Positions 16,497 to 50,692 of a stretch of DNA of 64,000 nt are shown one piece after another. Position numbers and translations under genes: made by a program. Source of the stretch: a virus; the IMG/VR virus record IMGVR_UViG_3300033049_000020, positions 64,001 through 128,000 of that record, one strand, 5' to 3'. The notes under the pieces are model-generated. The model had not been told where the DNA came from. It was given only the letters and a program-made list of their open reading frames with translations, and made no database searches. The first letter of the stretch is position 1, and the number at the start of each line of letters is the position of its first letter.

Positions 16497-16566
16497 AAAA
16501 TATTTTACAAAAGACTTGTATTATCCAAATACTTTTCGTATCTTTGTACTATATTTAATAGAAAGA
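16497..16566 (+). repeat. 70-bp promoter block identical to 26843-26912
   Basis: Exact direct repeat containing TATCTTTG and TATTTAA, ahead of leaders 1 and 2. Confidence 0.9.
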
Positions 16567-16577
16567 AGAAACAAGTT

Positions 16578-16673
16578 ATGTTTACAACAATTACAATATT
16601 AGTCTTATGTTTACTGAGCAGCGTGGTGCTGTTGAGGCAAGAGAGCTATGATGTAATCTATTGTAAAGCATAA
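16578..16673 (+). CDS. Leader peptide 1 (Leu/Val/Cys-rich): MFTTITILVLCLLSSVVLLRQESYDVIYCKA
   Basis: Short ORF between promoter and terminator, ahead of Cys/Val/Leu tRNAs. Confidence 0.75.
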   Translation: MFTTITILVLCLLSSVVLLRQESYDVIYCKA

Positions 16674-16698
16674 AGAACTACAATACTTAATACATTAG

Positions 16699-16729
16699 AA
16701 GCTCTTACTCTCCAGTAAGGGCTTTTTTT
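16699..16729 (+). terminator. Attenuator terminator 1
   Basis: AAGCTCTTACT/AGTAAGGGCTT plus T run; 5' arm can pair alternatively with GAGAGCT at 16641. Confidence 0.85.
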
Positions 16730-16755
16730 ATGTCCAGTTCTTTGAAATAAAATAT

Positions 16756-16841
16756 GTGTAGGTGCCTGAGTGGTCGAAAGGTGCGGTCTGCAAAACCGTA
16801 AGGAGAAATCCTCATCGTCAGTTCGAATCTGACCCTACACT
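16756..16841 (+). tRNA. tRNA-Cys(GCA), long variable arm
   Basis: GTGTAGG/CCTACAC, loop CTGCAAA. Confidence 0.85.
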
Positions 16842-16847
16842 CTAAAT

Positions 16848-16920
16848 GTCCCTATAGTGTAGCGGTTCAGCACGTAACTCTTACAAAGTTGCAGCCCAGA
16901 TTCGAATTCTGGTGGGGATA
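16848..16920 (+). tRNA. tRNA-Val(TAC)
   Basis: GTCCCTA/TGGGGAT, loop CTTACAA. Confidence 0.85.
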
Positions 16921-16947
16921 CAAAGAGGAATGAAGTACAAGTTCCTT

Positions 16948-17464
16948 GGCTAAGTGGTGGAATTGGTATACACGCCCTCTGAAGGGGAGAGTTCATTACG
17001 ATACCAGAACGGAGTTGCGAGAGCGTGAGAAGGAGTTAGTTAATGAGGGTTTGTTGAAAGAGGTTTTATGTATGAATTTGGCAATAGGTGGAGGCGGTGG
17101 GTTTACTAGTAAAGAGCATATGTTAAAAGCTACTAAAGCTGGTAATAAAGCGACCCTTAAGAAGAGGTGGATTGATAATAGAGAAGTGAATGTTGATAAT
17201 TTGGTTAAACTAAACAAGAGTATGTGGGCTGACCCACATATGAGAGAAAAAATGCTTAAATCTAATGGGTTTAAAGATAAGACACATAGTGAAGAAACGT
17301 TGGGGAAGATGAGAGAGGTTATGAAGGGTAAAGGTACTGGGAAGGATAACTCGCAATATGGTACTTGTTGGATAACCAGAGATGGTGAGAGTAAGAAGAT
17401 AAATAAAGAAGGAATTAACGAATACCTTGCAAAAGGTTGGGCTAAAGGAAGAAAAGGAACATAA
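16948..17464 (+). pseudogene. Truncated tRNA-Leu 5' half fused to N-terminally deleted GIY-YIG/NUMOD3 endonuclease
   Basis: GTGGTGGAATTGGTATACACG Leu-type D arm with no T arm; ORF matches C-terminal part of 18569/30518 (CMNL..GG.GG, NSQYGTCWITRDG). Confidence 0.65.
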
Positions 17465-17696
17465 AATGGGTAAAGTAAAATATATAAGTAAAGTAGGTGA
17501 ATGGTTTAAAGAAGGTACAGAAGCTTTCCGTGAAGAACCTACCTATGAGGGTCATGCAATATACAAAGGTGTTTATGTTGTCGGAAGTTCTGGTGGTGGG
17601 TATGACAACTTTTGGTATAATAAAGGTCATAAGGATGGTGATGAGGTAGAGATGAGGGAACATTGTTCAGATGATGAATTTGATATTAAATAATAC

Positions 17697-17768
17697 GTCT
17701 CTATGGTGTAACGGCAAGCATCTCACTATGACATGGTGAACGGATTGGTTCGATTCCAATTAGAGATA
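17697..17768 (+). tRNA. tRNA-Val(GAC)
   Basis: GTCTCTA/TAGAGAT, loop ATGACAT. Confidence 0.8.
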
Positions 17769-17779
17769 CAATAATATAA

Positions 17780-17862
17780 GCCGCAGTGGTGAAATGGTAG
17801 ACACGCCAGACTTAGAATCTGGTGCCCTTACGGGCGTGTGAGTTCGAGTCTCACCTGCGGTA
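17780..17862 (+). tRNA. tRNA-Leu(TAG)
   Basis: Class II cloverleaf, loop CTTAGAA. Confidence 0.95.
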
Positions 17863-17873
17863 CAGTATCACAT

Positions 17874-17956
17874 GGGGATGTGGTGGAATGGTAGACACAC
17901 TAGCTTGAGGGGTTAGTGCCGTGAAAGGCGTGTGGGTTCGACTCCCACCATCCTCA
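17874..17956 (+). tRNA. tRNA-Leu(GAG)
   Basis: Class II cloverleaf, loop TTGAGGG. Confidence 0.9.
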
Positions 17957-17964
17957 CAACATAT

Positions 17965-18042
17965 GCGCTAGTAGTCCAATTGGTTAGAGGCATCAGGCTT
18001 AAACCCTGTCCAGTGTGGGTTCGAGTCCCACTTAGCGTACCA
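17965..18042 (+). tRNA. tRNA-Leu(TAA), short variable loop, encoded CCA
   Basis: GCGCTAG/TTAGCGT, loop CTTAAAC. Confidence 0.85.
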
Positions 18043-18045
18043 AAT

Positions 18046-18129
18046 GCCGTAGTGGTGGAATAGGTAGACACGAGGGTTTCAAAAGCCCTTTCCAGTAATG
18101 GAGTGTGGGTTCGAGTCCCACTTACGGTA
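18046..18129 (+). tRNA. tRNA-Leu(CAA)
   Basis: Class II cloverleaf, loop TTCAAAA. Confidence 0.9.
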
Positions 18130-18458
18130 CAAAATGAATGGAAAGCTAAAAACGGATATTAAGATGGAAATGAAACATAGTATTAAAGAAATAGTGAAAG
18201 ACAATACAGCTATACTGGAGTATAGTCAAAGTGGTAAATTATATTACTCTGTGGAAGTTGCAGATAGTACATATAGTGTGACAGCTACTAAATATACCTT
18301 CCCAGTAGACGTTACTAATAGTGATGACGTTGGAGATAGCAGATTTGAGTTAACGCATAAAGCGATTACTCTAATGAGGTATATTCGAAAGGCTATTAAG
18401 TCTGAAGAGATTCGTTGGGAAGAGTGTGCTATAAACTTTTCACAGTTGTAATTAGTAT

Positions 18459-18530
18459 TTCCCTATGGCGTAACGGCAAGCGTATCGTTTTTACATGACG
18501 AAGGGGATGGTTCGATTCCATCTAGGGAAA
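18459..18530 (+). tRNA. tRNA-Val(TAC)
   Basis: TTCCCTA/TAGGGAA, loop TTTACAT. Confidence 0.8.
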
Positions 18531-18568
18531 CTGGTGACTTTTTGGTACCTAGCACTATATTTAACTAT

Positions 18569-19213
18569 ATGAGGAAACCAAAAACGATACATTACATTTA
18601 CAAAACCACTTGTGATGTAACTGGTCGATACTATGTAGGGATGCATAGTACCAGTAACCTAGAAGATGGTTATATGGGTTCAGGTAAGAGGTTAAGACGT
18701 TCCATACGTAAGTACGGAGAAGATAATCATACCAAAGAGGTTGTGGCGTTCTACGATAGTAGGGAACTACTGGTTGAAGCTGAGAAGGAAGCCATCACAC
18801 CATATATGATTGGGGATAGGGATTGTATGAATCTGATGGGAGGTGGAACTGGCGGTTGGTGTAGTGAGGAGCACATGGTTAAATGTACTATAGCTGCTGG
18901 AAAAGCTAATAAAGTAAGGTTTGAAGTGGATATTGAGTATAAGAATTGGTGTTTAGATATTATGGCTAAAGGTAGGGCTAAATTAATTGATACGGGAGCG
19001 TATAAAAAGAAAGGTAAGGGGTTAGGTAGAGTTCATTCAGATGAAACTAAACAGAAAATGTCCAAATCGTCTAAAGGGAATGGTGTTGGAAAGTCTAACT
19101 CTCAATATGGTACTTGTTGGATAACCAGAGATGGTGAGAACAAAAAAATAAAGAAAGAAACTCTTAATGAATACTTAGAGATAGGTTGGGTTAGGGGAAG
19201 AGGAATAAAATGA
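18569..19213 (+). mobile_element. GIY-YIG (Seg-like) homing endonuclease
   Basis: YIYKTT..YYVGMHST..YMGSG; NUMOD3-like HSDETKQKMS. Confidence 0.9.
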
Positions 19214-19603: not shown

Positions 19604-19662
19604 TGTGGGGTAGCTCAGTTGGCTAGAGCCTTGTTTCGGTGGTTCGAATCCGCCCCCCACAA
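19604..19662 (+). ncRNA. Anticodon-armless tRNA-like RNA
   Basis: TGTGGGG/CCCCACA acceptor, canonical D and T arms, 8-nt linker in place of anticodon arm. Confidence 0.65.
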
Positions 19663-25586: not shown

Positions 25587-26923
25587 GATGGACTTAGAAA
25601 AACAATGGAACGACTTACGTAACGATGGTAAATTATTATCATATATTGAGGATAAGTTTGACCACTATAAAGAACTTGGCTATCAAGTAAGTGCCTTCAT
25701 AAGCTCTTCTTATATTAGTATTGGAGATGAGAGTATCACAGGCAACAAATCCATGTACCACGAATTAAAGAGTATTCATGATATGGATGCGTACTTAAAA
25801 GATAAAGAGGAAAGTCAACCATGAACAAACTACACGCAAGAAAAATAAGTGAAACCATACCTGATGTTGCAATATTCAACATGCTGGAACGTGCTAAGAC
25901 TGAGGTAAAGGATTGGTCGGTTCCATGTAAGGTGAATGGTCAGATAAGTAGGGGACATTTCTGGAACATGTTCGCATGTCAACTTAAAGCTCCAGATTTT
26001 GAAATCGTGAGTAGTATGGTTAAGTATAGTCTTATATATGAGTTCGGTGACCTACTTCCAAAGGAGTACCAACCACCCAAAAAGAAAAAAGGTAAGGAGT
26101 TACCATTAAACTATATTCATTCAGAACCAAAATTTAACTAATGGAAACAGATGGAGATTACGATACTGGATGGGATGAATCAGAAGATACTGAACTAGAA
26201 GCATGGGATGTAGAAACGGATTCTGAAGACCCAGAATTTGAAACTGGTAAGGAACCAAATAAGGATATTGATTATTTATACATTCTTGGTGAGGCTTGGC
26301 CAGTATATCCGCAAGGTATCACCACTATTTTCGAAGATAAATATGAAAGACCTCATATTGTATCTAGAGAGCAATTTGATGCTATTCACACCAAATACTC
26401 TTGTATAGATATTGATGATGAGGTAACGGCTATCGATATAGTCAAAATTGGAAACACATCTTACGAATTTACCATTAAAGAACTTAATATCAGATGTCGC
26501 TCTAACTATCCTTGGGCATTCTTTGAGAACACTCCAGAGAATAGACCGAAAATCAATGAGTACTATAGACAGAAAAAGAATAGAGAAGAGTTGGCTGAAA
26601 TAGTTGAAGTATTAAGAAACGATATTGCACAACTATGAACGAAGAAGTTACCCACTTCAATTATTGTATAGCTAGACCATGGAAAAATAATCCAAATAGT
26701 CTATCCGCATACGCTTTAGGTACTCAATTATTTTATGGTACTATGGAGGAGGCTGAAGACACAAGAGCGAATATAAGTAAACGAGCTGGAAAAGAATATG
26801 AAATCTATAAGCTTGATAATCAACCACTTATGAGAAAACCTTAAAATATTTTACAAAAGACTTGTATTATCCAAATACTTTTCGTATCTTTGTACTATAT
26901 TTAATAGAAAGACATAAACAGTT

Positions 26924-26992
26924 ATGAGAAACTTTAACGACATATTCGAATTCAACTTTGCCGCATTTGCGGAGGAGGATGATTGCATCTAG
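26924..26992 (+). CDS. Leader peptide 2 (Phe/Glu/Asp/Ala-rich): MRNFNDIFEFNFAAFAEEDDCI
   Basis: Short ORF between promoter and terminator, ahead of Phe/Glu/Ala/Asp tRNAs. Confidence 0.8.
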   Translation: MRNFNDIFEFNFAAFAEEDDCI

Positions 26993-27034
26993 ATGCCAAA
27001 GGATATGTTGTAAACGAAACTCAATACGATATAC

Positions 27035-27068
27035 AAAACCTTTGGCTAACCAGTCAAAGGTTTTTTTT
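27035..27068 (+). terminator. Attenuator terminator 2
   Basis: AAAACCTTTGGCT/AGTCAAAGGTTTT plus T run; CCTTTGGC can pair alternatively with GCCAAAGG at 26995. Confidence 0.85.
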
Positions 27069-27185
27069 ATGCCTTAAAATTAAAATATGCGACCTAAGCT
27101 AACTTGGTAGAAGCACTGGCTTGAAACCCTTCTTTCTAATAGAAGTAAAACAATTAGAGTGAGTTCTTTGACATCTTGGTTAAAT

Positions 27186-27259
27186 GGGGTAGTGGTAGAG
27201 TTGGTCAATTGCGTTCGGTTGAAGCCCGAAAGATGTAGGTTCGATTCCTACCTGCCTCA
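27186..27259 (+). tRNA. tRNA-Phe(GAA)
   Basis: GGGGTAG/CTGCCTC, loop TTGAAGC. Confidence 0.8.
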
Positions 27260-27323
27260 CAAAAGTTTGAACTATTTTTACACTTTTCAGTCTTTGTTGA
27301 TATTTATATTAAACGATGATATT

Positions 27324-27740
27324 ATGGAAAAGAAAATTTGTACACGATGTGAAGATAGTAAAGAGTTAGACGACTTCAGTTGGAAGAGTAAAGTAAAAGG
27401 GACTAAACAGTCTAAGTGTAAAGTATGTATGCGTGAGTTGGATAAGATAAAATACGCTAATGATACTGAAAGGAGAAGAAGAATAAGGGAAACCGCAAAA
27501 CTGGCTTATATTAGGAATCGTGATTTTGTGCGGAGAGTAAAAAGGTTGGGTAGCTGCTCTGAATGTGTAGAAGATAGGTGGTATTGTTTAGACTTCCATC
27601 ATTGTGGAGATAAAGAGTTTGAACTTAGTGATATGGTACATTCTGGGTATTCCATTATTAAGATTAAAAAGGAAATTAGAAAATGTAAGCTTCTATGTGC
27701 TAATTGTCATAGAGAAGAACATTACCAGAATGGTTATTGA
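27324..27740 (+). mobile_element. HNH homing endonuclease
   Basis: CSEC..LDFHH...KC.LLCANCHREEH. Confidence 0.85.
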
Positions 27741-27776
27741 CGCGGTTCGAAACTGGTAGGTCGCACCAAAACATAC

Positions 27777-27849
27777 GTGACAGTAGCTCAGTTGGTAGAG
27801 CATCGCCCTGAAGAGGCGAGTGTCGGGGGTTCGAGACCCTCTTGTCACA
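27777..27849 (+). tRNA. tRNA-Phe(GAA)
   Basis: GTGACAG/TTGTCAC, loop CTGAAGA. Confidence 0.9.
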
Positions 27850-28013
27850 CAGCTAATATTTTAGCCAGAAATAGCTAAAATAGAGGTAAATAGTTAATAT
27901 ATTAGCTATTGTTCTTTGACATCTTGGTTAAATGGTGCTGTATGCAAGCGGTTCAACGCAGCAATTTGACATTTTCTAAATGTTTAGTATATTTATATTA
28001 AAATAGATATATT

Positions 28014-28640
28014 ATGGTAAGAAAATGGAGAGAAAAGGAAATTGAGTTTTTAAAGCTTAATTATGGTGCTAATGGTTGTAAATACGTTTGTGAAAAATTA
28101 AATAGAGGTAGAGGTAGTGTACAGAAAAAGGCTAAAGTCTTCAACCTGAAAGTAGATAGGAAAAAAATTTATTATTCAGTGGAAGTTGTTAGTAGAATAG
28201 TCAGTGAAAGTATGTCGATGAAGGATGTGGTGTTGGCATTAGGTAAAAGTGTTAGTGGTAAACAATATAAGGTAATAAAAAAGTTTATAGATGATAATAG
28301 TATTGACGATACACATTTTAATCCTTACCACTTAAATAAAACTAATTTAAAAATTGGTAGAGTCACATATCCAATTGACCATTGGCTTAAGAACGGTTCT
28401 AATATTAGTAGTTCTAACTTAAAGGTTAAACTATATAAAGAAGGTCTGAAGAAGAGGGATTGCGAAATGTGTGGGCAAGGTGAAGAATGGTTAGGTAAAA
28501 AAATGAGTTTAATACTTGACCATATTAATGGGGTGAATGATGATAATAGGTTGGATAACTTAAGGATTGTTTGCCCTAATTGTAACGCTACCTTGGAAAC
28601 CCATTGTAGAGGTAGTAAGGGATTAAAACAACGTGCGTAA
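28014..28640 (+). mobile_element. HNH homing endonuclease
   Basis: CEMCG..LDHING..DNRLDNLRIVCPNC. Confidence 0.9.
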
Positions 28641-28714
28641 TGCAATTGGGTGCGCAACTGGGCTTTCACCCCAGCTACATTGTTAGAGAGTGGGTTCGAT
28701 TCCCACACGCATGA
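28632..28714 (+). tRNA. tRNA-Glu(TTC), long variable arm
   Basis: CGTGCGT/ACGCATG, loop CTTTCAC; overlaps HNH stop. Confidence 0.75.
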
Positions 28715-28908
28715 CTATACAACCTTGTGTCTATATGACTTCGAGGGTTCGAATCCCTTCGGCACTACATTATTGGTGTTCCAAATTGACCTAAAATTGA
28801 GTGTTTTGGAACACCAATAACCAGCCAAAACTACCTGTTTTAGGGTACATTTGGCTGGTTATAGAACGCGGAATGTACTTAAATGTGGTAGATTCCGAGA
28901 AATATCAC

Positions 28909-28981
28909 CGCCCGTTGGTCTATCGGTTAGGACGTCTGGTTTTCAACCAGAAGGTGATGGGTTCAATTCCCATACGGGTGA
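28909..28981 (+). tRNA. tRNA-Glu(TTC)
   Basis: CGCCCGT/ACGGGTG, loop TTTTCAA. Confidence 0.9.
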
Positions 28982-29011
28982 CCTTGACAATCTGGAAAGA
29001 CAGATAATTAT

Positions 29012-29088
29012 GGGGGATGGGACTGCTTTGGAGTGGTCACCTCACTTGCAATGAGGAAATCAGATGGGTTCGAATCCCATATCCTCCA
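29012..29088 (+). tRNA. tRNA-Ala(TGC)
   Basis: G3:U70 pair, loop CTTGCAA. Confidence 0.85.
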
Positions 29089-29153
29089 CTCAATGTGGGA
29101 CTTTGATTTACTTTTTCTCCACTTTGCGTATATTTATAATAAAGACTAAATAA

Positions 29154-29933
29154 ATGGCTAAGTGTAAGAATATTGAGTGTAAAAATAATACAGAAGGTAA
29201 ACGAGTTTATTGTTCGTTACAGTGTAGGAACTATTATGTTAACAAATATATTAGGGACTACAATAAAAATAGCAAGGGGCTTGCCAAAGACGCTAAGAAA
29301 GTTTATGAGGACAACCCTAAATATTGCTTAAACCCTAATTGCGGAGAGAAGATAACATATAAGAAAAGAAGGAACCAATATTGTAATAGCTCATGTCAGG
29401 CGTCTGTTACGGGTGTAGGTAGAATTGTTAGCGAAAGTACTAGGGAAAAGCATAGATTAAGTAGGTTAAAACAAATTGGTGATTACAAAAAGGTTGATTG
29501 TAAATGGTGTGGTTCAGAACTATTAGTTATGAATAGAAGACTATATTGTGATTCAGAATGTAGAAGAAAATATAATCGTAAGAATATGGATGAGTTCTTA
29601 ATCTACAAAGCTGACACAAAATTCGGTTTTAATTTGGGTGATTATCCTAAAGAATTTAATTTTGGGCTGATAGAGGAACACGGTTGGTACTCACCAACCA
29701 ATTCAAGAAAGCCTAATATTGGTGGTATAAGTAGAGACCACATGTTATCAGTTAGAGAAGGGTTTAATAGTGGGATAGACCCAAAATTATTGAGTCATCC
29801 AGCCAATTGTAAATTGATGATTCATGGTGATAATATTAGTAAGAATAAGAAATCTAGTATAACAGAAGAAGAATTAAAGGAAAGGATTAAAGAATGGAAT
29901 AAGAAATATGGGGCTATGGTGACAACTGGCTAA
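29154..29933 (+). mobile_element. Zn-finger/HNH-like homing endonuclease
   Basis: Multiple CxxC/YCS..C; SRDHMLS..HPANC..NISK; ends inside tRNA-Ala. Confidence 0.65.
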
Positions 29934-29983
29934 CACGTTGCTTTTGCAAGGCAGAGATGGGGTATCGTACACCCCTAGCTCCA
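29910..29983 (+). tRNA. tRNA-Ala(TGC), atypical T loop
   Basis: GGGGCTA/TAGCTCC, loop TTTGCAA. Confidence 0.75.
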
Positions 29984-30297
29984 CTTATTAACTTAAAAAT
30001 GAAGTAAAATGAGACTTACAGAGAAAAGAGAAATGCTTATGAAATTGGGTGAGAACCTAATGAGTAAAGGTGGTAAGCTAACACTTAACTTCACCAACGG
30101 TAGTATGAGGTATACGGAGCTTATAGCTTCTGAACAGTATCACTATCAAAGTGACAAACGATATGTCGAAATATCGGCTATGGTTCATTTCAGTGAACCA
30201 AACGTCTACAGGGTAATACCTATAGGCACTAATACAATTAGTTTTGTACTGGAAACACTTCTGAGTAACTCCAAGTAACCGCTTGGCATCAGTAATT

Positions 30298-30369
30298 GGT
30301 CTTGAAGCACAATGGCTGTGCAACTCGTTGTCTGCGAGAAAGTTGCGAGTTCGAATCTCGTCAGGACCG
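30298..30369 (+). tRNA. tRNA-Asp(GTC)
   Basis: GGTCTTG/CAGGACC-G, loop TTGTCTG. Confidence 0.8.
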
Positions 30370-30398
30370 CCTTTGACAATCTGGAAAGACAGATAAAT

Positions 30399-30481
30399 GG
30401 ATATGGCGCATAACGGCTGGTGTACCTGACTGTCACTCAGGTGTGTGTAACACGTAGTGGGTTCGACTCCCATCATATCTG
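30399..30481 (+). tRNA. tRNA-Asp(GTC), long variable arm
   Basis: GGATATG/CATATCT-G, loop CTGTCAC. Confidence 0.8.
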
Positions 30482-30517
30482 CCCTTGACTTTTTGGTACT
30501 TAGCCATATTTATATGT

Positions 30518-31159
30518 ATGAGGAAACCAAAAACGATACATTACCTTTACAAGACTACTTGTAAAGTAACAAATAGGTACTATGTAGGGATGCATAGTAC
30601 CAACGACTTAGAAGACGGTTATATGGGTTCTGGAAGAAGGTTACGAGCCTCAATCAGGAAACATGGTGAAGATAACCATACCAAAGAGATATTGGAGTTC
30701 TTTGATGATAGAGGACGACTGATAGAAGCAGAGAAGGAATCTATTACCTTAGACATGATTGATGATAAGGATTGTATGAATCTGATGGGAGGTGGAACAG
30801 GTGGTTTCATCAGCGAAGACCAACAGAGGCATCGTTCAACGATTGCAGTGGAGAAGAGAGAAAAGAAGAGAGAGGACGACCCAGAGTGGGATAAAGAGTA
30901 TAGACAAGCTCAATCCCTATCATTGATGAAGCAATATGAGAGTGGTAAGCGAGTATCCAAGCTCCCAAACTGGGAAGGTAGGAAACATTCAGAAATTACT
31001 AAAGAGAAGATGAGGGAGACTAAGAAGGGACAAGGCTCTGGCGAAACTAACTCTCAATACGGTACTTGTTGGATAACCAAAGATGGTTCCAACAAGAAGA
31101 TTAAGAAACAACTTCTTGATTCATTCCTTACTGAAGGATGGGTTAAAGGTAGAAAATAA
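30518..31159 (+). mobile_element. GIY-YIG (Seg-like) homing endonuclease, paralog of 18569
   Basis: MRKPKTIHY.YKTTC..YYVGMHST..YMGSG. Confidence 0.9.
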
Positions 31160-31465
31160 TTTGGATAGGTCGAATATTTTACGTATCTTTTACGTATCTT
31201 TGTAGGATGAAAAGATTTAAGATAGGCGATACGTTCGTCAATAATGTAGACCATAGTAAGGTTAGTTCTAAAGGATATGACCATGCAGTTAACTACCTGC
31301 CATACACTTCAGAACCAGATGAAAGTTTGGAAACTATTGGTAAAACACAAACGGTTATAGATATTGAAGATGGTGATACTATAATCACTGATTTTGTTTT
31401 ATCATCTGGAGAAACGTACTGGTTTGAAAAGGATTCCTCATACGCAGAAAGTTGTAAAAAAATAC

Positions 31466-31576
31466 GAATGTAAGAGCAAGCTGTCGTGAGACGCTGTATT
31501 GGGTTCATTACCCGATAAGTCTACGGTTAAAGGTGGTACCATTGTTAACTTATAGGTGCAATTCCTATTACATTCG
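31466..31576 (+). ncRNA. Expanded tRNA-like RNA with CAT anticodon hairpin
   Basis: GAATGTA/TACATTC acceptor, T-like arm ATAGG-TGCAATT-CCTAT, hairpin TATTGGG-TTCATTA-CCCGATA. Confidence 0.5.
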
Positions 31577-31578
31577 CT

Positions 31579-31661
31579 AAGGTTGAATACAGCAAACAAA
31601 AATTCCGAGAGATGTGCCCACGGGCACCCTTCCCGACCAAATTCCCGAAAGGGGTCAACCT
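31579..31661 (+). ncRNA. CAGCAA-stem element
   Basis: AGGTTGA-ATACAGCAA...TCAACCT closing stem with internal hairpins. Confidence 0.5.
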
Positions 31662-31667
31662 ACATTC

Positions 31668-31739
31668 CGTCCTATGGTGTAACGGCTAACATGCTACCCT
31701 GTCACGGTGGCGCTAGGGGTTCGATTCCCCTTGGGACGG
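31668..31739 (+). tRNA. tRNA-Asp(GTC)
   Basis: CGTCCTA/TGGGACG, loop CTGTCAC. Confidence 0.9.
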
Positions 31740-32708
31740 CTCTGGAACTTTTGTACCTTAGCTATATGAGGAAACAAAATGATGGTGTTTCAAGTAGAAA
31801 ATAATTTGTAAATGTCAAATAAATTTTGTATCTTTGTATTATGAGTAGATATGAAGTAAGGGTAATATGGTACGAGGGTGCCACTCAAACTGAAATAATC
31901 ACAGGTAACCTAACCATGGGTAATAATTATTATCAGATAGTTGACGAAGATTTTAAGGACTGGTTCTTCCCAATGGGAAGAACCGTAATTCAAGAACTAT
32001 GAAAGGATTTATATTTTGTATATGGATGTTTATGGATGTTTATAACACTTGTACTTGTACTTAGTCTTATAGGTTTGTGGGTGGTATTACCTACCACAAC
32101 ACATTACGTTGAAGGTCCGCCAAACATCATTAGAAGTGACTGGATGATATTAGGTGACAAATTACTGGAAGCGGTATTAACGGATAAGAAATAAAACTGA
32201 CAGATGAAACTTAAGAAATTTATAAAGAACTTAGAAGCGTTCGCAAAGAAACATCCAGAAGCATTGGAAATGACGGTAGTAACTGCCATTGATGATGAAG
32301 GTAACGGATTCAATGAGGTGTACTTTACTCCAATATTGGGATTCTACGAAGATAGAGAATTCATGTCTGTTGAGAATATGGAGGAGTACGAAAGACCTCC
32401 ATCTGACATCAACGCTGTCTGTGTGAACTAATGGGTAATAAGAAAATAAATAGGCTGCTTATCAACATGAAGAACAAGATTGATATTATTAACGGTTCAA
32501 TCAACATGGTTCATGAGATGAGGCGAGGAGAAACGATTACGTTAAATGGAATACACCGATTGGAAGTCGGGATGTCAGAGTCTACAACCAATGACGAGTA
32601 CATCGGAATAATAGACAAGTTGATTGATGAGAGAGATAACCTTCAAAATTAGTTAACCGAATGGATGGTTAAGTACGAATAACGCTTCTCTCTGTCATAT
32701 TTACATAT

Positions 32709-33308: not shown

Positions 33309-33424
33309 TGGCGTATGGTGTAGTGGTAGCACACTTATAACGGAACCTGACCAAGGTTCTATTCAGCAACAAAAATTTCCATTTCGAGGAAGTAGCGGAG
33401 GTTCGATTCCTTCTACGTCAACCA
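33309..33424 (+). ncRNA. tRNA scaffold carrying a permuted CAGCAA module
   Basis: TGGCGTA/TACGTCA-A-CCA, D and T arms intact; insert GAACCTG-ACC-AAGGTTC-TATTCAGCAA before hairpin TTCC-ATTTCGA-GGAA. Confidence 0.6.
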
Positions 33425-41676: not shown

Positions 41677-41761
41677 GGCGCAATAGCTCAGTTGGTAGAG
41701 CGAGGTTTAAAAATGCTACTTGTAGCGGCCTTGGTCGGTGGTTCGAATCCATCTTGCGCCA
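41677..41761 (+). ncRNA. tRNA-like RNA with hairpin inserted in anticodon loop
   Basis: GGCGCAA/TTGCGCC, canonical D/T arms, extra GCTAC-TT-GTAGC. Confidence 0.6.
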
Positions 41762-41766
41762 CATAT

Positions 41767-42034: not shown

Positions 42035-42059
42035 CTAAAATATTTTAAACGAATATACT

Positions 42060-44862: not shown

Positions 44863-45642
44863 AAACTAATGGCTAAGAAACCAGTACCATGTATAAAGTG
44901 TGGCGAAACTAAAATAGTAATCGGAGATGCAAACGAAAGCGCCTTCAACTATTTTACGGGTAAATGTACCAATTGTGGTAATGAAGTATTTGGTGATTGT
45001 GGCATATTCCCTGAGATGGATATGATGGTTGGAACGTGGAATGCGTCTAACGACCCAAAGAAGATACTTAAGTCTTATAAGAGTACTATTAAAGATTACG
45101 AGAAGAAGATTGACGAAGTAAAACAAAAGATAGTTGAACTTGAATTCTGGCATACCAAATGATAGATATTAAAGACCTAAGAGTAGGAAATCATATTCAA
45201 CTTCATGAGGTAGATGCTGGTGAAGATAGAAAGGCAACCTTTGATTGGTTGAAGTCAAATCAATTGAAAAGGATATGATAAATGGATAAATTAGAGATAG
45301 GAACAAGAATAATATTCGTAAAGCTTTTAGATAGCCCAGCCACTGGCGACCACCCAGAATTAGTTTATGCTTATAAAGGAGACGAAGGAGAGGTAACTGG
45401 ATACAATAACTTTGAAGGGTATTGGGTTAAAAGAGATAAATGGCCAGCCCCTTTCGGTGCAGAGATAGAAACCGAATTCATCGAGTTAAAATTATAAGAC
45501 TGAAAATCAGTCACTTAAGAGAAATTTTAAAAATAATTGTACGAACACTTGTTTTATTCAAAACTATTTCGTATCTTTGTACTATAATTAAAATAAACAA
45601 AGAAACTTTGCACTTTTATTAAGTGCGCTATATTTAAAAGAA

Positions 45643-45732
45643 ATGAGAAACTTTACTACGACTTATAAAGGGAAACAGTATCCGCAAGGCACAAAGCCAA
45701 GCGCACTGAGATTGTCGTATCTTGTTTTCTAA
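45643..45732 (+). CDS. Leader peptide 3 (Thr/Tyr/Lys/Gly/Gln/Pro-rich): MRNFTTTYKGKQYPQGTKPSALRLSYLVF
   Basis: Short ORF between promoter and terminator, ahead of Pro/Gln/Tyr/Thr/Gly/Lys tRNAs. Confidence 0.8.
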   Translation: MRNFTTTYKGKQYPQGTKPSALRLSYLVF

Positions 45733-45765: not shown

Positions 45766-45798
45766 AAAGCCTCAGTGAGAAATCACCGAGGCTTTTTT
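45766..45798 (+). terminator. Attenuator terminator 3
   Basis: AAAGCCTCAGTGA/TCACCGAGGCTTT plus T run; CTCAGTG can pair alternatively with CACTGAG at 45704. Confidence 0.85.
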
Positions 45799-45864
45799 GT
45801 TGTTTCATATTTTGACAACGTTAAAAATAAAATATGGTTCTTTGACATCGTGGTAATAAATAAA

Positions 45865-45937: not shown

Positions 45938-45943
45938 TAATAT

Positions 45944-46022
45944 CTAGGTACTTGAGCAGTTGGTTGAACTCGCTTGCTTTGGGAGCAAGAGTATTGCGCT
46001 GGTTCGAATCCAGCTACCTAGA
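45944..46022 (+). tRNA. tRNA-Pro(TGG)
   Basis: CTAGGTA/TACCTAG, loop TTTGGGA. Confidence 0.8.
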
Positions 46023-46033
46023 CTTTTTAATCT

Positions 46034-46127
46034 CTAGTAATGTGCGAGTGGATTAAGCAACTGGCCTTGGAAACCAGTGAGGACTTCAAGAGGTTGTCTT
46101 CCGTAGGTTCGAATCCTACTTACTAGA
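46034..46127 (+). tRNA. tRNA-Pro(TGG), long variable arm
   Basis: CTAGTAA/TTACTAG, loop CTTGGAA. Confidence 0.75.
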
Positions 46128-46248
46128 AATGACTAAGTTAACTACTTCCACGTAGTAGTCATTGGAAACAGGTAATGCTGGCTAAAAGTTAACAAAAAAT
46201 TCTGGTCACTTTCTCTGACTTGAACATATTTATATAGAAATAGATATT

Positions 46249-46596
46249 ATGGGACAATCAGAGAAACAACAATTATGGAAGAAGCAACACTACCAAGAGA
46301 ACAAAGAATTTTATATTAATAAGCAACAAAAGAGGAGGAAAGAAATTAAAGAATTCATTGATTCCTTTAAAACGGAATGTGATGCATGTTATGAATATGA
46401 TAAAGCGTGTTTGGACTTTCATCACCTAGATGGAGCTGATAAAGATGCGGCAGTATCTCAAGCATTGGTAAATAAATGGGGCAATAAAAGGATTATAACA
46501 GAGATAGAAAAATGTGTTGTATTATGTTCTAACTGTCATCGTAAGTTACACGCTTATAATTTAACAGTCGAAGAACTTAAAATTAGAATAGCATAA
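46249..46596 (+). mobile_element. HNH homing endonuclease
   Basis: CDAC..LDFHH..KCVVLCSNCHRKLH; paralog of 27324. Confidence 0.85.
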
Positions 46597-46648
46597 TAAT
46601 ATACGGCAATTAGTTGTCGTATTTGCCGCAGAAAATGCGGCAAATAAT

Positions 46649-46723
46649 CGGGGGGTTCCGCAGATGGATATACGGACCTGCTTTGGAAGCAGGTGTTCGT
46701 GGGTTCGAATCCCACTCTCCCGA
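46649..46723 (+). tRNA. tRNA-Pro(TGG)
   Basis: CGGGGGG/TCTCCCG, loop TTTGGAA. Confidence 0.85.
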
Positions 46724-46726
46724 CTA

Positions 46727-46784
46727 AAGGATGATTACAGCAAACAAAAACAATTTGACTCTTAATCAAAAAAAATTCATCCTG
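46727..46784 (+). ncRNA. CAGCAA-stem element displaying a Lys(CTT) anticodon arm
   Basis: AGGATGA-TTACAGCAA...TTGACTCTTAATCAA...TCATCCTG. Confidence 0.6.
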
Positions 46785-46790
46785 TTATAT

Positions 46791-46876
46791 TGAGCGATAT
46801 GCAAACTGGCAAGCAAACAGGTTTTGAACCTGTCGTGACGAAAGTCCAATTGTAGGTTCGAACCCTACTCGCTCAA
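46791..46876 (+). tRNA. tRNA-Gln(TTG), long variable arm
   Basis: TGAGCGA/TCGCTCA, loop TTTTGAA. Confidence 0.8.
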
Positions 46877-47185
46877 CCGTTTACTTTTCTGTACTTTTTA
46901 AGTACATTATACAATAACAAAAAATGATACTATGGAGAATATAGAGAAATTAATAACTGAATATGAAACCAAATATGAAGAAGGTTTCACCGATGATGAA
47001 ATCAAAAACATATTAGAGAATTATCCCAACATTAACATGGATAAGTTTAATGGTGCAATGATGGGAAATACGTGTGCAATGAGAGATGGGTTACTAGTAA
47101 TGTATCCTTGTGATGTAAGAGCAGCATTGTATTGTGGAATGGAGAATCGAGATTTAAATATACAGGAATGGGATTAAACGTATAT

Positions 47186-47256
47186 TGCCTTGTCGTCTAG
47201 CGGCAGGACCCTCCCCTTTGAAGGGAGTGACGGTGGTTCGAATCCATCCGAGGCAA
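47186..47256 (+). tRNA. tRNA-Gln(TTG)
   Basis: TGCCTTG/CGAGGCA, loop CTTTGAA. Confidence 0.9.
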
Positions 47257-47283
47257 CCCTTAACTTTTTGGTCGCTTTACTCC

Positions 47284-47354
47284 AATTATAAAAATTGTAC
47301 ATGACCTAATTATAAAAATCGTACATGACCTAATTATAGATATTGTACGTCACT
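47284..47354 (+). repeat. 24-bp tandem repeat x3
   Basis: AATTATAAAAAT(T/C)GTACATGACCT twice plus a degenerate third copy. Confidence 0.85.
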
Positions 47355-47374
47355 TTAGAGATGAATAAAAATAT

Positions 47375-47460
47375 CGGTTAGATGGTAAATTGGCTAAATC
47401 AGCAGACTGTAAATCTGTCGTCTTTCGACTATGTAGGTTCGATTCCTACCTGACCGACCA
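47375..47460 (+). tRNA. tRNA-Tyr(GTA), C1:G72, encoded CCA
   Basis: CGGTTAG/CTGACCG-A-CCA, loop CTGTAAA. Confidence 0.85.
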
Positions 47461-47503
47461 AGCTAAGTTCACACTATAATCGCAAAGAAGAGGAAGTGTA
47501 ATT

Positions 47504-47575
47504 GGGAATATGCTCAGGGTAAGTCAGACGGATTGTAACCCCGAACTGCATGGAGTTCGAGTCTCCTCATTCCCA
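47504..47575 (+). tRNA. Atypical tRNA-Tyr(GTA)-like
   Basis: GGGAAT/ATTCCC, T arm, loop TTGTAAC, weak D arm. Confidence 0.5.
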
Positions 47576-47688
47576 CAGCTTAGTTGGTACTATACTCGGT
47601 TGACGAGGAAGTACATTGGTTGAAGTTATAATAAACCACCCTTCTTGAAAGGGAACCCATAAAGATGGGTTATAAATAAAACTTAGAT

Positions 47689-47771
47689 GCTTGATTAGTA
47701 TAACGGAGGGGAAACCCGTATTACCTTGGCTTTGTAACCCAAAAATATCAGTTCGATTCTGATATCAAGCT
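47689..47771 (+). tRNA. tRNA-Thr(TGT) with hairpin in D loop (Tyr register possible)
   Basis: GCTTGAT/ATCAAGC, loop TTTGTAA, insert GGGAAACCC. Confidence 0.6.
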
Positions 47772-47855
47772 CTACATAGTGATTATTTGTGGTTGATGTA
47801 TAACAATTAATCATTATCACTATACTTTTTGATGATAATGCTTATATTTATTATT

Positions 47856-48356
47856 ATGGAAGCTAAAATATGTAAAAATTGTGGTGAGGAAATCAAAGGT
47901 AGAGGCATTAAGTTCTGCTCTCAAACCTGTAATGGTATCTACAACAATAAAGATAGGATTAAGAAGGTAGAACGAGAATGTAATAATTGTGGTGTAGTAA
48001 CAACTAATAAATTTTATTGTACGCCAGAGTGTAATCAAAAACATAAAACTCAATTAAGGTTTGACCAGATTGAGAATGGTGACATTACATTAGATTTTAG
48101 GCAGTATAAAAAATACCTAATTAATAAACATGGTGCTAAATGCATGAGATGTGGTTGGTGTGAGGTTAATCCGACATCTGGTAATGTGCCTATAGAGTTG
48201 GAACATAAAGATGGTGACTCAAGTAATAATTCATTAGGTAATCTTGAATTACTTTGTCCTAACCACCATTCACTAACACCAACGTATAAAGCGTTGAATA
48301 AAGGTAACGGTAGACATAAAAGGATGGAACGTTACAAAGAAGGTAAAAGTTATTAA
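47856..48356 (+). mobile_element. HNH homing endonuclease
   Basis: CMRCG..LEHKDG..NNSLGNLELLCPNHH. Confidence 0.9.
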
Positions 48357-48576
48357 ATTAATAGTTATGGAAGAGACAATAATCGATGGTAGAGAAGCCA
48401 TCATAACAAGAGGAGAGGGGTTAGTGGTCATAGCATCCAAAGGTAAAGGTGGTGCTGTAATATCTGATGAGAATGAAGATGTTGCTAAGGAGAAGTTTTC
48501 TGAAGCGATGAATTTGGCTGAGTCAGTTTACAAACTAATCTTTTTTGAAAAACATGGGAAATTCCCATAAACATAA

Positions 48577-48650
48577 GCGAGTAACGCATAAGTGGTGGTG
48601 CGCCAGCCTTCCAAGCTGGAATAGAGTCGGTTCGATACCGTCTACTCGCT
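48577..48650 (+). tRNA. tRNA-Gly(TCC)
   Basis: GCGAGTA/TACTCGC-T, loop CTTCCAA. Confidence 0.85.
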
Positions 48651-48690
48651 CACGGACATATCGGACTGTCCAATAAAATGTCCGATAAAT

Positions 48691-48761
48691 GCAGTATAGG
48701 TGTTACGGTAGCACATCTGGCTTCCACCCAGAAGGCGAGATTTCGACTATCTCATACTGCA
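48691..48761 (+). tRNA. tRNA-Gly(TCC)
   Basis: GCAGTAT/ATACTGC, loop CTTCCAC. Confidence 0.8.
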
Positions 48762-48906
48762 CAAAAGTAAGTATAGTAGCAATAACACAAAGCGCTTGTG
48801 TTATGTACCTTGCAGTGGGTGACCACAAGGAGAAGTACGTTTCGAGTAATTAACGGGATGGAATTGGGCTAATCAGGCGAATAAACTTCTCTTACTTTTA
48901 ATAATT

Positions 48907-48981
48907 CCATCGGTAGCAAATGTGGATAAGCAACTGGTTTTTACCCAGAATGGAAGACGGGTTCGACTCCCTCTTGGGGCA
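48907..48981 (+). pseudogene. Chimeric tRNA-Lys(TTT) with non-pairing acceptor
   Basis: 5' end identical to 49021 copy, but 3' strand TTGGGGC does not pair with CCATCGG. Confidence 0.55.
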
Positions 48982-49020
48982 CTGGATTAGTTAGCACTAT
49001 ACTCGAAAGGAAGTGCAAAA

Positions 49021-49094
49021 CCATCGGTAGCAAATGTGGATAAGCGTTCGGTTTTTACCCGAAGTAGGAGTGGGTTCGACACCCACCCGATGGA
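49021..49094 (+). tRNA. tRNA-Lys(TTT)
   Basis: CCATCGG/CCGATGG, loop TTTTTAC. Confidence 0.8.
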
Positions 49095-49099
49095 CAAAT

Positions 49100-49171
49100 G
49101 GCTCTATAGTATAAGCGGCAATACACTAGTCTTGTAAACTTGAGTTCTGGCATCGATTGCCAGTAGAGCCT
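49100..49171 (+). tRNA. tRNA-Thr(TGT)
   Basis: GGCTCTA/TAGAGCC, loop CTTGTAA. Confidence 0.75.
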
Positions 49172-49177
49172 CAATAT

Positions 49178-49247
49178 GCGATTATAGTTTAATTCAGAAT
49201 ACCAACCATCTAGGTTGGAGATGTTGGTGGAAACCCAGCTAATCGCT
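49178..49247 (+). pseudogene. Degenerate Gly-like tRNA
   Basis: GCGATTA/TAATCGC-T acceptor; loop CATCTAG lacks U33; T loop atypical. Confidence 0.45.
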
Positions 49248-49252
49248 CATAT

Positions 49253-49340
49253 GACTCCATAGTTCAATTGGTTATCCCGAAAGGGTGTAGAATAGTTGCC
49301 TTTTAAGCTTCGGATTTGGGTTCGAGTCCCAATGGAGTCA
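49253..49340 (+). tRNA. tRNA-Lys(TTT) with hairpin in D loop
   Basis: GACTCCA/TGGAGTC, loop CTTTTAA, insert ATCCCGAAAGGGT. Confidence 0.7.
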
Positions 49341-49453
49341 CACAAGTTTGTACGTTTGTGCTGTAAAACGTACTTATCATGATGAATTCATGTGCAACTG
49401 GGTAACAGGTTAACCACTCTCCTGTCCTAATGTTAAAGACTAAAAGTGGATAT

Positions 49454-49528
49454 GCGAATGTAGCTCAGTTGGTTTAGAGCGTCTGGTTGCCAATCAGAAG
49501 GTCGTGAGTTCGAATCTCATCTTTCGCT
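49454..49528 (+). tRNA. tRNA-Gly(GCC)
   Basis: Canonical D/T arms, loop TTGCCAA. Confidence 0.9.
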
Positions 49529-49567
49529 CTCTTGACTTTTTGGTACTTCCCACCTCCCCAACAATAA

Positions 49568-49641
49568 CCATCGATAGCAAATGCGGATATGCACTTGACT
49601 CTTAATCAAGACGGGAAAGGGTTCGACTCCCTTACGGTGGA
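49568..49641 (+). tRNA. tRNA-Lys(CTT)
   Basis: CCATCG/CGGTGG, loop CTCTTAA. Confidence 0.8.
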
Positions 49642-49664
49642 CTAACATTAAAATCAACATTATT

Positions 49665-50339
49665 ATGGAAGATGAATCGTATTACGTCTCTGACGTAACA
49701 GGTAATAAGTACCCCAAAGATGAGTATCATAATCATGGTTGGGGTGGGATTAAGTACAATTTTAAGGATTTACCTCATGATGAATATCCTTATTCAGTAG
49801 TAGAACCAAACATCAAAAGCGATGAGGAGTTACTGGTTGAATATATGCGAGAGGTCTTTAGTATCCTTAAGGAACGAGAAGTGCCGAGTAAGTATGATAA
49901 AGAGTATGATGCTAGACTATACAAAGCTCTGGCTAATTGGAACATTCACGTAATACCTCACGCCTTTAAGGAGCGTGGATTGAGAGAAGAGGATGTTGCG
50001 ATAATATTACCGTCAGCACGATTAAGAGAGCTGGCAGAATACGTTGAATTCACAAATTTAATTGATTTTACCACGGGAAAGAAGGTATTGGGCGAAATGC
50101 TTGATAGTAATGAAGACGCTTGGACGGTAATGGAAAGAATGGATTTATTATACAAGGCCGAAGGTTCGGCAGTAGAAGATGCTGTTGACGCAGTATTAGC
50201 TAAATATCCAGATAAAATTATTGCCTACAAAGGTGGAAAGAAAGGTTTATTTGGAATGTTTGTTGGTGAGATAATGCGAAGCATTAAGGGTGTTAATGGG
50301 AAAGAAGTAAGTGATATATTAACCGAAAAATTAAAATAA
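49665..50339 (+). CDS. GatB C-terminal/YqeY domain protein
   Basis: VDAVLAKYPDKIIAYKGGKKGLFGMFVGEIMR..KG. Confidence 0.75.
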   Translation: MEDESYYVSDVTGNKYPKDEYHNHGWGGIKYNFKDLPHDEYPYSVVEPNIKSDEELLVEYMREVFSILKEREVPSKYDKEYDARLYKALANWNIHVIPHAFKERGLREEDVAIILPSARLRELAEYVEFTNLIDFTTGKKVLGEMLDSNEDAWTVMERMDLLYKAEGSAVEDAVDAVLAKYPDKIIAYKGGKKGLFGMFVGEIMRSIKGVNGKEVSDILTEKLK

Positions 50340-50620
50340 TGATGGAACGAATAGATTTTCCAACATCTGGAATGCACATCAACGACTATTTAACGTCAGT
50401 TGAACGTGAAGTATCTGAATACTACTCAGATTCTATTCGTAGAATTTGGGTAAGCTATGCTAGAATCAGCAAAGGACGTGGAGAGTATAGGCTACAAGTG
50501 ACTGTATTTCCAAATGGAGTTGACTCCCCATATAGGATTATCACTGGAGAGGTTGATACTCAATTGACTCTAGAGGGAGTCTGCGAAATGATTGATGGAG
50601 CACTTAAGGCCATCAATAAT

Positions 50621-50692
50621 GCCTCCATGGTATAAAGGTTATTACGTGCCCTTGGTAAGGGTAAAATTCCGATTCAATTTCGGGTGGAGGCT
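50621..50692 (+). tRNA. tRNA-Thr(GGT)
   Basis: GCCTCCA/TGGAGGC, loop TTGGTAA. Confidence 0.85.

Follow-up and report, generated by a model that had tools for sequence, protein, structure and literature searches.

How does a phage control the transcription of its own transfer RNA (tRNA) genes? This question is raised by a stretch of 64,000 nucleotides (nt) from the IMG/VR virus record IMGVR_UViG_3300033049_000020, here called the window, which covers bases 64001-128000 of a record totalling 152,464 bp. The DNA belongs to an uncultured 152-kb phage of the Bacteroidota and contains tRNA operons, each of which is preceded by a short open reading frame (ORF). A first-pass annotation of the sequence had proposed that these ORFs encode leader peptides whose codons match the downstream tRNAs. 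Our follow-up analysis makes it quite probable that the transcription of each tRNA operon is controlled by a ribosome-mediated attenuator with a leader peptide, which would sense decoding capacity and exert feedback on the tRNA supply. What we observed directly are the anatomy of the sequence, its alternative folds, the statistics of the codon match, its conservation and the co-variation of its parts.

All units show the same order of elements: a Bacteroidota-type promoter, an ORF of 22-31 codons, an antiterminator hairpin, a U-tailed terminator, a boxA-like site and the tRNA genes. The three leader ORFs of the window and their shared layout read in the sequence as the annotation had described them, and the boxA-like site GTTCTTTGA was found, as it had claimed, at 16737, 27163 and 45837. 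The control regions of the three operons comprise the following features:

16497..16553, plus strand: promoter of operon 1, Bacteroidota type (-33 TTG, -7 TAnnTTTG)
16578..16673, plus strand: leader ORF 1, 31 sense codons and TAA
16641..16706, plus strand: antiterminator hairpin 1; 16641-16647 pairs with 16700-16706 (terminator 5' arm), stop codon at the apex, free energy (dG) -18.2 kcal/mol
16697..16733, plus strand: intrinsic terminator 1, 13-pair stem, 4-nt loop, T tract
16737..16745, plus strand: boxA-like site GTTCTTTGA of operon 1
26843..26899, plus strand: promoter of operon 2, about 70 nt of promoter and 5' untranslated region (5'-UTR) identical to operon 1
26924..26992, plus strand: leader ORF 2, 22 sense codons and TAG
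26995..27046, plus strand: antiterminator hairpin 2; 26995-27002 pairs with 27039-27046 (terminator 5' arm), dG -16.7 kcal/mol
27035..27068, plus strand: intrinsic terminator 2, 13-pair stem, 4-nt loop, T tract
27163..27171, plus strand: boxA-like site of operon 2
45530..45586, plus strand: promoter of operon 3
45609..45627, plus strand: small 5'-UTR hairpin between the promoter of operon 3 and the leader ATG
45643..45732, plus strand: leader ORF 3, 29 sense codons and TAA
45704..45778, plus strand: antiterminator hairpin 3; 45704-45710 pairs with 45772-45778 (terminator 5' arm), stop codon at the apex, dG -20.6 kcal/mol
45767..45800, plus strand: intrinsic terminator 3, one stem mismatch, GAAA loop, T tract, dG -15.5 kcal/mol
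45837..45845, plus strand: boxA-like site of operon 3

A promoter core of 20 nt (16534-16553 in operon 1) is identical in operons 1, 2 and 3, and at three mismatches or fewer it occurs 13 times in the window, while 0.01 occurrences are expected. The leader ORFs begin 25-56 nt downstream of this core in all four units (a fourth is described below), ahead of the first structural gene, which is the place of the short ORF in a leader-peptide attenuator. The 20 nt preceding the leader ATGs consist of A to 61%, compared to 37% locus-wide; translation starts of Bacteroidota do without Shine-Dalgarno pairing, and an A-rich upstream context fits them. A rule-based finder, which demanded a promoter -7 box, an ATG-initiated ORF of 15-50 codons, a terminator no more than 130 nt away and a tRNA at a distance of up to 1.3 kb, returned exactly four units in the whole 152-kb genome.

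ARAGORN predicted 43 tRNA genes in the genome, 31 of which lie in the window; every one is on the plus strand, and further tRNA genes were added using Rfam and inspection by hand. Taken together, the operons cover all 20 isotypes. The three arrays that start in the window are:

16756..18531, plus strand: tRNA array 1 with Cys GCA; Val UAC (two genes) and GAC; Leu UAG, GAG, UAA and CAA; ORFs lie between the tRNAs
27186..31740, plus strand: tRNA array 2 with Phe GAA (two genes), Glu UUC (two), Ala UGC (two) and Asp GUC (three)
45944..50694, plus strand: tRNA array 3 with Pro UGG (three genes), Gln UUG (two), Tyr GUA, Gly UCC (two), Gly GCC, Lys UUU, Lys CUU, Thr UGU, Thr GGU and two weaker tRNA-like genes

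Comparison of these arrays with the leader ORFs revealed the codon match. Among control codons 8-19 of leader 1 (16599-16634), 10 of 12 specify Leu, Val or Cys, and they sample six of the seven anticodon species of array 1. In leader 2, 14 of the 17 codons from 4 to 20 (26933-26983) stand for Phe, Glu, Asp or Ala and all four anticodon species of array 2 are sampled, while codons 5-19 of leader 3 (45655-45699) are without exception Thr, Tyr, Lys, Gly, Gln or Pro codons (15/15) with all nine anticodon species of array 3 represented. These are the counts reported in the first-pass annotation, and they hold against the amino acids of the downstream tRNAs. The count for leader 2 needs Ala tRNAs, so the match depends on a pair of tRNA-Ala(UGC) genes in array 2 (29012-29088 and 29910-29983); both carry the G3:U70 identity pair and both are missed by ARAGORN with default settings. 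Homing-endonuclease ORFs are interspersed among the tRNAs of this array.

When each leader was scored against each array, the true assignment was the best of 24 permutations, with the strict as well as with the extended tRNA list. The longest in-set runs in the four leaders comprise 13, 6, 9 and 15 codons, and none of approximately 6,600 length-matched windows from the phage's own proteins contained such runs. Under strict wobble rules the leaders sample 9/11, 6/7, 4/4 and 9/9 anticodon species of their own arrays (28/31 in total), and in each leader two to four times more codons can be decoded by its own array than by any other. The regulatory codons are in this way tied to the product of the operon. 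Further, rare synonyms ending in G or C make up 25 of 55 control codons, where 16.3 are expected (p about 0.009), and some of the control codons account for 2-9% of the usage of their synonymous family in the phage. This enrichment suggests a deliberate sampling of isoacceptors.

The fourth unit of the same design, unit 0, is located just upstream of the window, and its array ends at about position 870 within it:

genome 55978: promoter of unit 0
genome 56052-56141: leader of unit 0
genome 56164-56196: terminator of unit 0
521..870 of the window, plus strand: tail of tRNA array 0 with Arg CCU, Arg ACG and then two odd Arg-like genes

Its leader, antiterminator and terminator together occupy genome positions 56052-56196 (-7948 to -7804 in window numbering). 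This leader was read before the tRNA list of array 0 was complete and therefore served as a test of prediction. Its first 14 codons specify Met, Ser, Ile, His, Asn, Trp and Arg only, and all of these match isotypes of the array, which contains His, Trp, Ser, Asn, Ile, CAU-anticodon and Arg tRNAs; the Trp tRNA, the second Asn tRNA and three odd Ile tRNAs, which default ARAGORN had missed, were found by a T-arm search, Rfam and relaxed ARAGORN. The tRNA-His gene of array 0 begins 8 nt downstream of the unit 0 terminator.

The second part of the design is the choice between two folds. In a terminator scan, the stems at 16697-16726 and 27035-27064 were the two strongest terminators in 16 kb; terminator 3 (45767-45794) was revealed by folding only. 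The terminator stem-loops have energies of -12.6 to -20.6 kcal/mol, are followed by T tracts and precede the first structural gene. The antiterminator is a hairpin of 55-77 nt (-16.7 to -20.6 kcal/mol). Its 5' half is made up, in every unit, of the final 10-14 ORF codons, and the terminator 5' arm serves as its 3' basal strand. Antiterminator and terminator share this arm, and the other antiterminator strand lies in the ORF within reach of the ribosome. Hairpin 3 has inner helices in addition. Folding also bore out the annotated location of the stop codons, which are found at the hairpin apex in units 0, 1 and 3 and at its base in unit 2, where the hairpin begins 2 nt past the leader TAG. If this TAG is read through, the frame closes at a TAA (27011-27013); a relative (G001) has a Tyr codon in place of the TAG, and the TAA six codons further on, near the apex, ends both frames.

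The annotation had recommended folding the leaders with a ribosome footprint, and this check supported the proposed geometry. With the terminator 3' arm withheld and a footprint of 30 nt imposed, the terminator 5' arm of unit 2 was held by the upstream strand as long as the A-site codon was one of codons 1-19 and was freed at codons 21-23. Units 1 and 3 followed the same trend less cleanly. With this attenuator geometry, read-through is expected to rise when ribosomes stall.

Downstream of the terminators, at a distance of 4-100 nt, follows the boxA-like site. The sequence GTTCTTTGA is present at six sites in the window, compared to 0.8 expected, and agrees with a boxA consensus close to the promoter of a stable-RNA operon. 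The identical 9-mer, or one that differs by a single base, was found 90-158 nt upstream of the 16S rRNA gene in an Algoriphagus genome and in two Sphingobacterium genomes. Its presence in rrn leaders of Bacteroidota makes it reasonable to assume a Nus-type antitermination role on the long untranslated transcript. A search of bacterial genome contigs with an 18-nt boxA pattern gave matches at approximately the chance rate, none of them before a 16S gene, and was uninformative with respect to the host.

We then asked whether the design is conserved. Searches of isolated-phage records at the DNA and protein levels gave matches at the tRNA level only and no cultured relative, and neither a scan of viral contigs with the promoter core nor a search with the protein of the gene that precedes leader 1 returned relatives. 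In IMG/VR, a scan with the boxA-like site and its flank yielded 43 loci, mostly within phage tRNA arrays, a scan with a short leader pattern (family A) yielded 38 more, and five further contigs were sampled. In total, the finder and a few pattern scans detected at least 45 distinct leaders, homologous or analogous to those of this phage, in IMG/VR contigs, and the leader family is accordingly widespread among uncultured phages. Two related contigs, G001 (162 kb) and G002 (71 kb), possess all four isotype-sorted operons, with a leader on each. The true leader-array assignment ranked first among 24 permutations in the present genome (G000) and again in G001, among 6 in G002 and among 2 in a separate lineage.

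Family A comprises 27 distinct leaders. In its control region, defined as codon 2 to a conserved Trp-Arg-Arg-Asn-Ser block, 98% of the residues belong to the set His, Trp, Ser, Asn, Ile, Met, Arg and Thr, compared to 50% in the rest of the ORF. In the variable columns Ile, Met, Asn, Ser, Arg and His replace each other. The control region conserves set membership and not the peptide sequence.

The strand of the antiterminator that lies in the ORF occupies fixed codon positions and varies in step with each phage's own terminator arm. In family A there are at least eight compensatory pairings, for example TGGTCAG/CTGACCA, GTCAAGG/CCTTGAC and GAATTCGG/CCGAATTC, and in families B, C and D the strand tracks the terminator arm in the same manner. 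Since an alignment of the 27 family-A leaders with MAFFT aligned the ORF well and misaligned the variable terminator arms, counting of pairs was dropped and an alignment-free test of cognate versus non-cognate duplexes was applied to 44 leaders. Cognate duplexes had a mean of -11.6 kcal/mol and non-cognate ones of -7.8 kcal/mol; the cognate duplex ranked first in 15 of the 44 leaders, with a mean normalised rank of 0.19 where 0.5 is the null expectation. Kinship among the leaders inflates the formal p value, while the effect is large. Measured from the end of the stop codon, the antiterminator strand begins 22-42 nt upstream in nearly all 44 leaders.

Lineages with another partition of isotypes are especially informative. 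In a separate lineage (L116, L120 and L126), a leader of 44 codons contains all 15 isotypes of its large array, and a second leader is rich in the remaining five amino acids (Ser, Thr, Cys, Arg and Leu), which correspond to the tRNAs after it. In a third lineage (L147 and L152), a 44-codon leader is devoid of Ala, Asp and Glu codons; ARAGORN finds none of these tRNAs in the array, and Asp and Glu tRNA genes are located upstream of the leader. The codon-match rule, as read from these genomes, holds under a differing partition (15 + 5). A co-variation of leader composition with downstream tRNA content in related phages was the second check put forward by the annotation, and these lineages passed it. 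Together with the folding, the 45 leaders, the in-set substitutions and the co-variation of strand and terminator, this strongly supports the structure of a leader-peptide attenuator.

On this basis we propose the following mechanism. Transcription would start at the Bacteroidota-type promoter and the first ribosome would translate the leader of 22-31 codons, the control codons of which (from codon 2 to about 20) are drawn almost only from the amino acids of the downstream tRNAs, with nearly every anticodon species and also rare synonyms included. If decoding is fast, the lead ribosome should enter the hairpin up to the apex stop codon and hold it open, so that the terminator forms and the tRNA genes stay off. 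If any sampled tRNA is scarce or uncharged, the ribosome would stall upstream, the antiterminator could fold and RNA polymerase would read through. The polymerase would then pass the boxA-like site, probably with recruitment of host Nus antitermination factors, and transcribe the array. Since the tRNAs of an operon speed up the decoding of its own leader, control of the tRNA supply would be self-limiting, by negative feedback, and regulation would take place per isotype group, with one circuit for each.

Several points weigh against this interpretation. Leader translation, stall-dependent read-through, conditional termination, Nus recruitment and feedback are steps that we infer. Some codons are out of set: Ser AGC twice in leader 1, and three Asn codons and one Ile codon in leader 2. 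In family A, a Thr is conserved at codon 3 and few arrays contain tRNA-Thr, and three to five of the 44 relatives have weak cognate duplexes. Equilibrium folds of the full leaders always favour the terminator, so that kinetics must decide between terminator and antiterminator, as they do in classical attenuators. A ribosome that has reached the stop codon leaves the basal antiterminator helix immediately behind its footprint; termination must then rest, as we assume, on disruption of the inner helices or on timing. In addition, the antiterminator is the preferred fold when the leader is not translated, and the default state may therefore be ON, unless a 1:2 'protector' helix acts. A possible helix of this kind, between control codons and antiterminator strand, is visible by eye in G001 and G002. 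Finally, array 0 contains a promoter-like site (genome 61236-61255, window -2764) with three mismatches to the core, which precedes an 80-aa ORF and the distal tRNAs. The distal part may therefore escape the attenuator, and the attenuator may not be the sole control of every tRNA.

If the attenuators work as proposed, a broader picture can be drawn tentatively, and we consider it a possibility more than an expectation: large Bacteroidota phages might divide their tRNA genes into regulons and possess a modular sensor of tRNA supply, in which each regulon is gated by a translated 'checklist' ORF that samples nearly all of its anticodon species, and any loss of host tRNA turns on exactly the replacement set. 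The triggers could be an anticodon nuclease, a phage-induced shut-off of the host or a mismatch in codon demand, and the operon would be switched off again once decoding recovers.

Among the alternatives, the one that survives best accepts the same device and holds that it was selected for counter-defence, providing replacement tRNAs when host tRNAs are destroyed by anticodon nucleases (PrrC, RloC, PARIS AriB, retron-associated PtuAB or colicin-like enzymes) or during phage-induced shut-off. An inducible counter-defence, or else a response to starvation, was the purpose suggested in the first-pass annotation. The circuit would react to the loss of any sampled tRNA, and the isotypes known as targets of anticodon nucleases (Lys, Tyr, His, Asn, Asp and Arg) are among those sensed. 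The extra tRNA copies with long variable or rearranged arms described below might resist cleavage. However, no finding of this analysis links the circuit to defence, all 20 isotypes are covered and not the known nuclease targets alone, and feedback between supply and demand in a normal infection explains the design at least as well. We thus regard a counter-defence role as conceivable, although rather doubtful.

Less probable is that the attenuators chiefly read amino-acid starvation and tie the tRNA output to the nutrition of the host. The mechanism cannot distinguish a missing tRNA from an uncharged one, and the classical multivalent thr and ilv leaders operate in this way, responding to uncharged tRNA. 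In contrast, sampling both members of the Lys, Gly, Thr and Val pairs is pointless for sensing amino acids and sensible for sensing tRNAs. Moreover, extra tRNA cannot relieve starvation, so there would be no feedback and no evident benefit. This explanation is therefore improbable.

Very little speaks for untranslated ORFs in front of terminators that are plain insulators or processing signals, with a codon match due to chance or to composition. Leader translation is indeed deduced, and since Bacteroidota lack Shine-Dalgarno signals, initiation cannot be judged from a ribosome-binding site. But the in-set runs are absent from random windows, the true assignment was the best in four independent tests, and ORF, frame and set membership are kept in 45 leaders while the peptide drifts; the antiterminator strand co-varies with the terminator, and the sequence ahead of the ATGs is A-rich. 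Ribosome-independent sensing, in which the leader RNA binds tRNAs by codon-anticodon pairing, is the least credible explanation, since, although T-box riboswitches are established to sense tRNAs by a choice between terminator and antiterminator, no T-box or other cis-regulatory family of Rfam reaches threshold on the leaders (the T-box covariance model gave no match at the gathering threshold or with E below 0.1 in the window and the upstream locus), and up to 15-30 in-frame codons from an ATG to a stop codon placed in a hairpin fit a translating ribosome and not a single specifier loop.

In addition to the attenuators, the locus has several features worth reporting. Ahead of leaders 1 and 2, about 70 nt are identical (16491-16560 and 26837-26906), while the leaders themselves differ, which points to a recent duplication or gene conversion of the promoter module. 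The small 5'-UTR hairpin of operon 3 has counterparts at the equivalent place in many relatives and may be a 5'-end stabiliser or a pause element. In relatives of unit 0 (L121, L131, L151, L173 and further loci of family A), the terminator and the first tRNA are separated by a conserved ORF of about 57 aa, which is absent here.

Copies of the boxA-like site also follow endonuclease ORFs. In operon 2, an ORF for an HNH endonuclease (27315-27740, PHROG match) is followed by a copy at 27911-27919; in unit 0, an endonuclease ORF at genome 56329-56976 is followed by a copy at 56997-57005, and HNH and GIY-YIG-like ORFs occur between tRNAs. The copies after endonuclease ORFs share the 18-nt flank. 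Either antitermination is reloaded after the endonuclease gene or the site travels with the mobile gene.

The tRNA genes themselves are partly unusual. Second copies of the Cys, Glu, Asp, Pro and Gln tRNAs have a long, class-II-like variable arm (tRNAs of 84-96 nt; window 16756-16842, 28632-28715, 30398-30484, 46033-46128 and 46791-46878), and there are Met and Asn examples in array 0. They coexist with canonical copies of the same isotype, and such an arm is unusual for tRNAs of these specificities. A second group consists of rearranged tRNA-like genes at genome 59554-59941 and at approximately 690-870 in the window (Ile GAU twice, Ile UAU, Arg UCG and Arg UCU). Their acceptor stem and T arm are normal, while the anticodon hairpin directly follows the acceptor strand and a motif like a D-loop comes thereafter; standard tools give them a weak or zero score. 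Outside of the four arrays, tRNA-like elements were found at 19604-19662, 33309-33421 and 41677-41762 of the window; among these elements are a mini form of 59 nt, one carrying an insert of 44 nt and another whose anticodon loop is odd. Two tRNAs with a CUA anticodon (amber-suppressor type) are located at genome 47335-47483 in a short unit of their own, which has a promoter and no leader. These tRNAs and the TAG of leader 2 prompted us to consider genome-wide recoding of TAG, which was not supported by ORF statistics. Finally, positions 1-126 of locus L001 (genome approximately 45001-45126) match RF00023 of Rfam with 56 bits. This corresponds to the 3' part of a transfer-messenger RNA (tmRNA) gene, cut by the end of the locus, and indicates that the phage encodes its own tmRNA.

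The proposed control of tRNA genes would be important for several reasons. Decoding speed, the quantity sensed, would be directly restored by the product of the operon, and, if true, this is a simple feedback circuit for tRNA supply which also explains the conserved grouping of the phage tRNAs by isotype. It would open a direct way to ask when phages need tRNAs of their own and for what purpose, and the idea of counter-defence would become testable. Should tRNA cleavage by host defence be the natural trigger, these leader peptides would form a counter-defence that is inducible and senses damage, the first to be built in this way. For synthetic biology, such leaders could serve as compact and programmable sensors for the availability of chosen tRNAs.

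How does this compare to known systems? Clusters of tRNA genes in T4, T5, large Vibrio phages and mycobacterial phages are similar arrays, often with homing endonucleases, and are thought to sustain translation late in infection or after loss of host tRNAs. To our knowledge, these clusters are described with ordinary early or middle promoters, and no codon-matched leader attenuator has been described for them. More generally, the annotation had suspected that such control of tRNA operons was undescribed, and in line with this, full-text literature searches, which did not cover all journals, found no description of leader-peptide control of tRNA genes; we know of no cellular or viral system in which tRNA genes are regulated by leader-peptide attenuation.

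The boxA-like site resembles the boxA/Nus sites of rrn operons, where an element of the GTTCTTTGA type is likewise found near the promoter region of a long untranslated RNA operon. Unlike in rrn, the phage site follows a regulated terminator and recurs in the arrays after homing-endonuclease ORFs, and binding of NusB/NusE is putative. T-box riboswitches share with the phage element the sensing of tRNA status and the choice between terminator and antiterminator before translation-related genes; however, they bind one uncharged tRNA without a ribosome, by a specifier codon and the T-box sequence, whereas the phage element is an ORF. The pheST operon of E. coli with its pheM leader is another case in which leader-peptide attenuation acts on a part of the translation machinery concerned with the sensed tRNA, but it controls the aminoacyl-tRNA synthetase of one amino acid and not tRNA genes, and its leader has no list of several isotypes.

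Leader-peptide attenuation as such is a textbook mechanism for genes making or charging amino acids. The enterobacterial leaders thrL (Thr/Ile), those of ilvGMEDA and ilvBN (Ile/Val/Leu), trpL, hisL, pheL and leuL consist of the same promoter-proximal short ORF with regulatory codons, have the same mutually exclusive antiterminator and terminator folds chosen by the position of the ribosome, and may respond to several amino acids per leader. At the sequence level the phage elements display every feature that defines a leader-peptide attenuator, and the multivalent thr and ilv leaders are their closest known likeness. In all described attenuators, genes for biosynthesis, transport or aminoacyl-tRNA synthetases are regulated, whereas here tRNAs and homing endonucleases lie downstream: enterobacterial leaders gate biosynthetic enzymes, the phage leaders would gate tRNAs. 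Enterobacterial leaders repeat one codon, while those of the phages list three to eight amino acids (15 in one lineage) in mixed synonymous codons. The stop codon is located between segments 1 and 2 in the former and at the antiterminator apex in the latter. Also unlike the enterobacterial leaders, the phage elements belong to phages of Bacteroidota and are followed by a boxA-like site. What is new, then, is the proposed attenuation of the tRNA genes themselves, by leaders that list many isotypes and isoacceptors and have their stop codon at the apex of the antiterminator.

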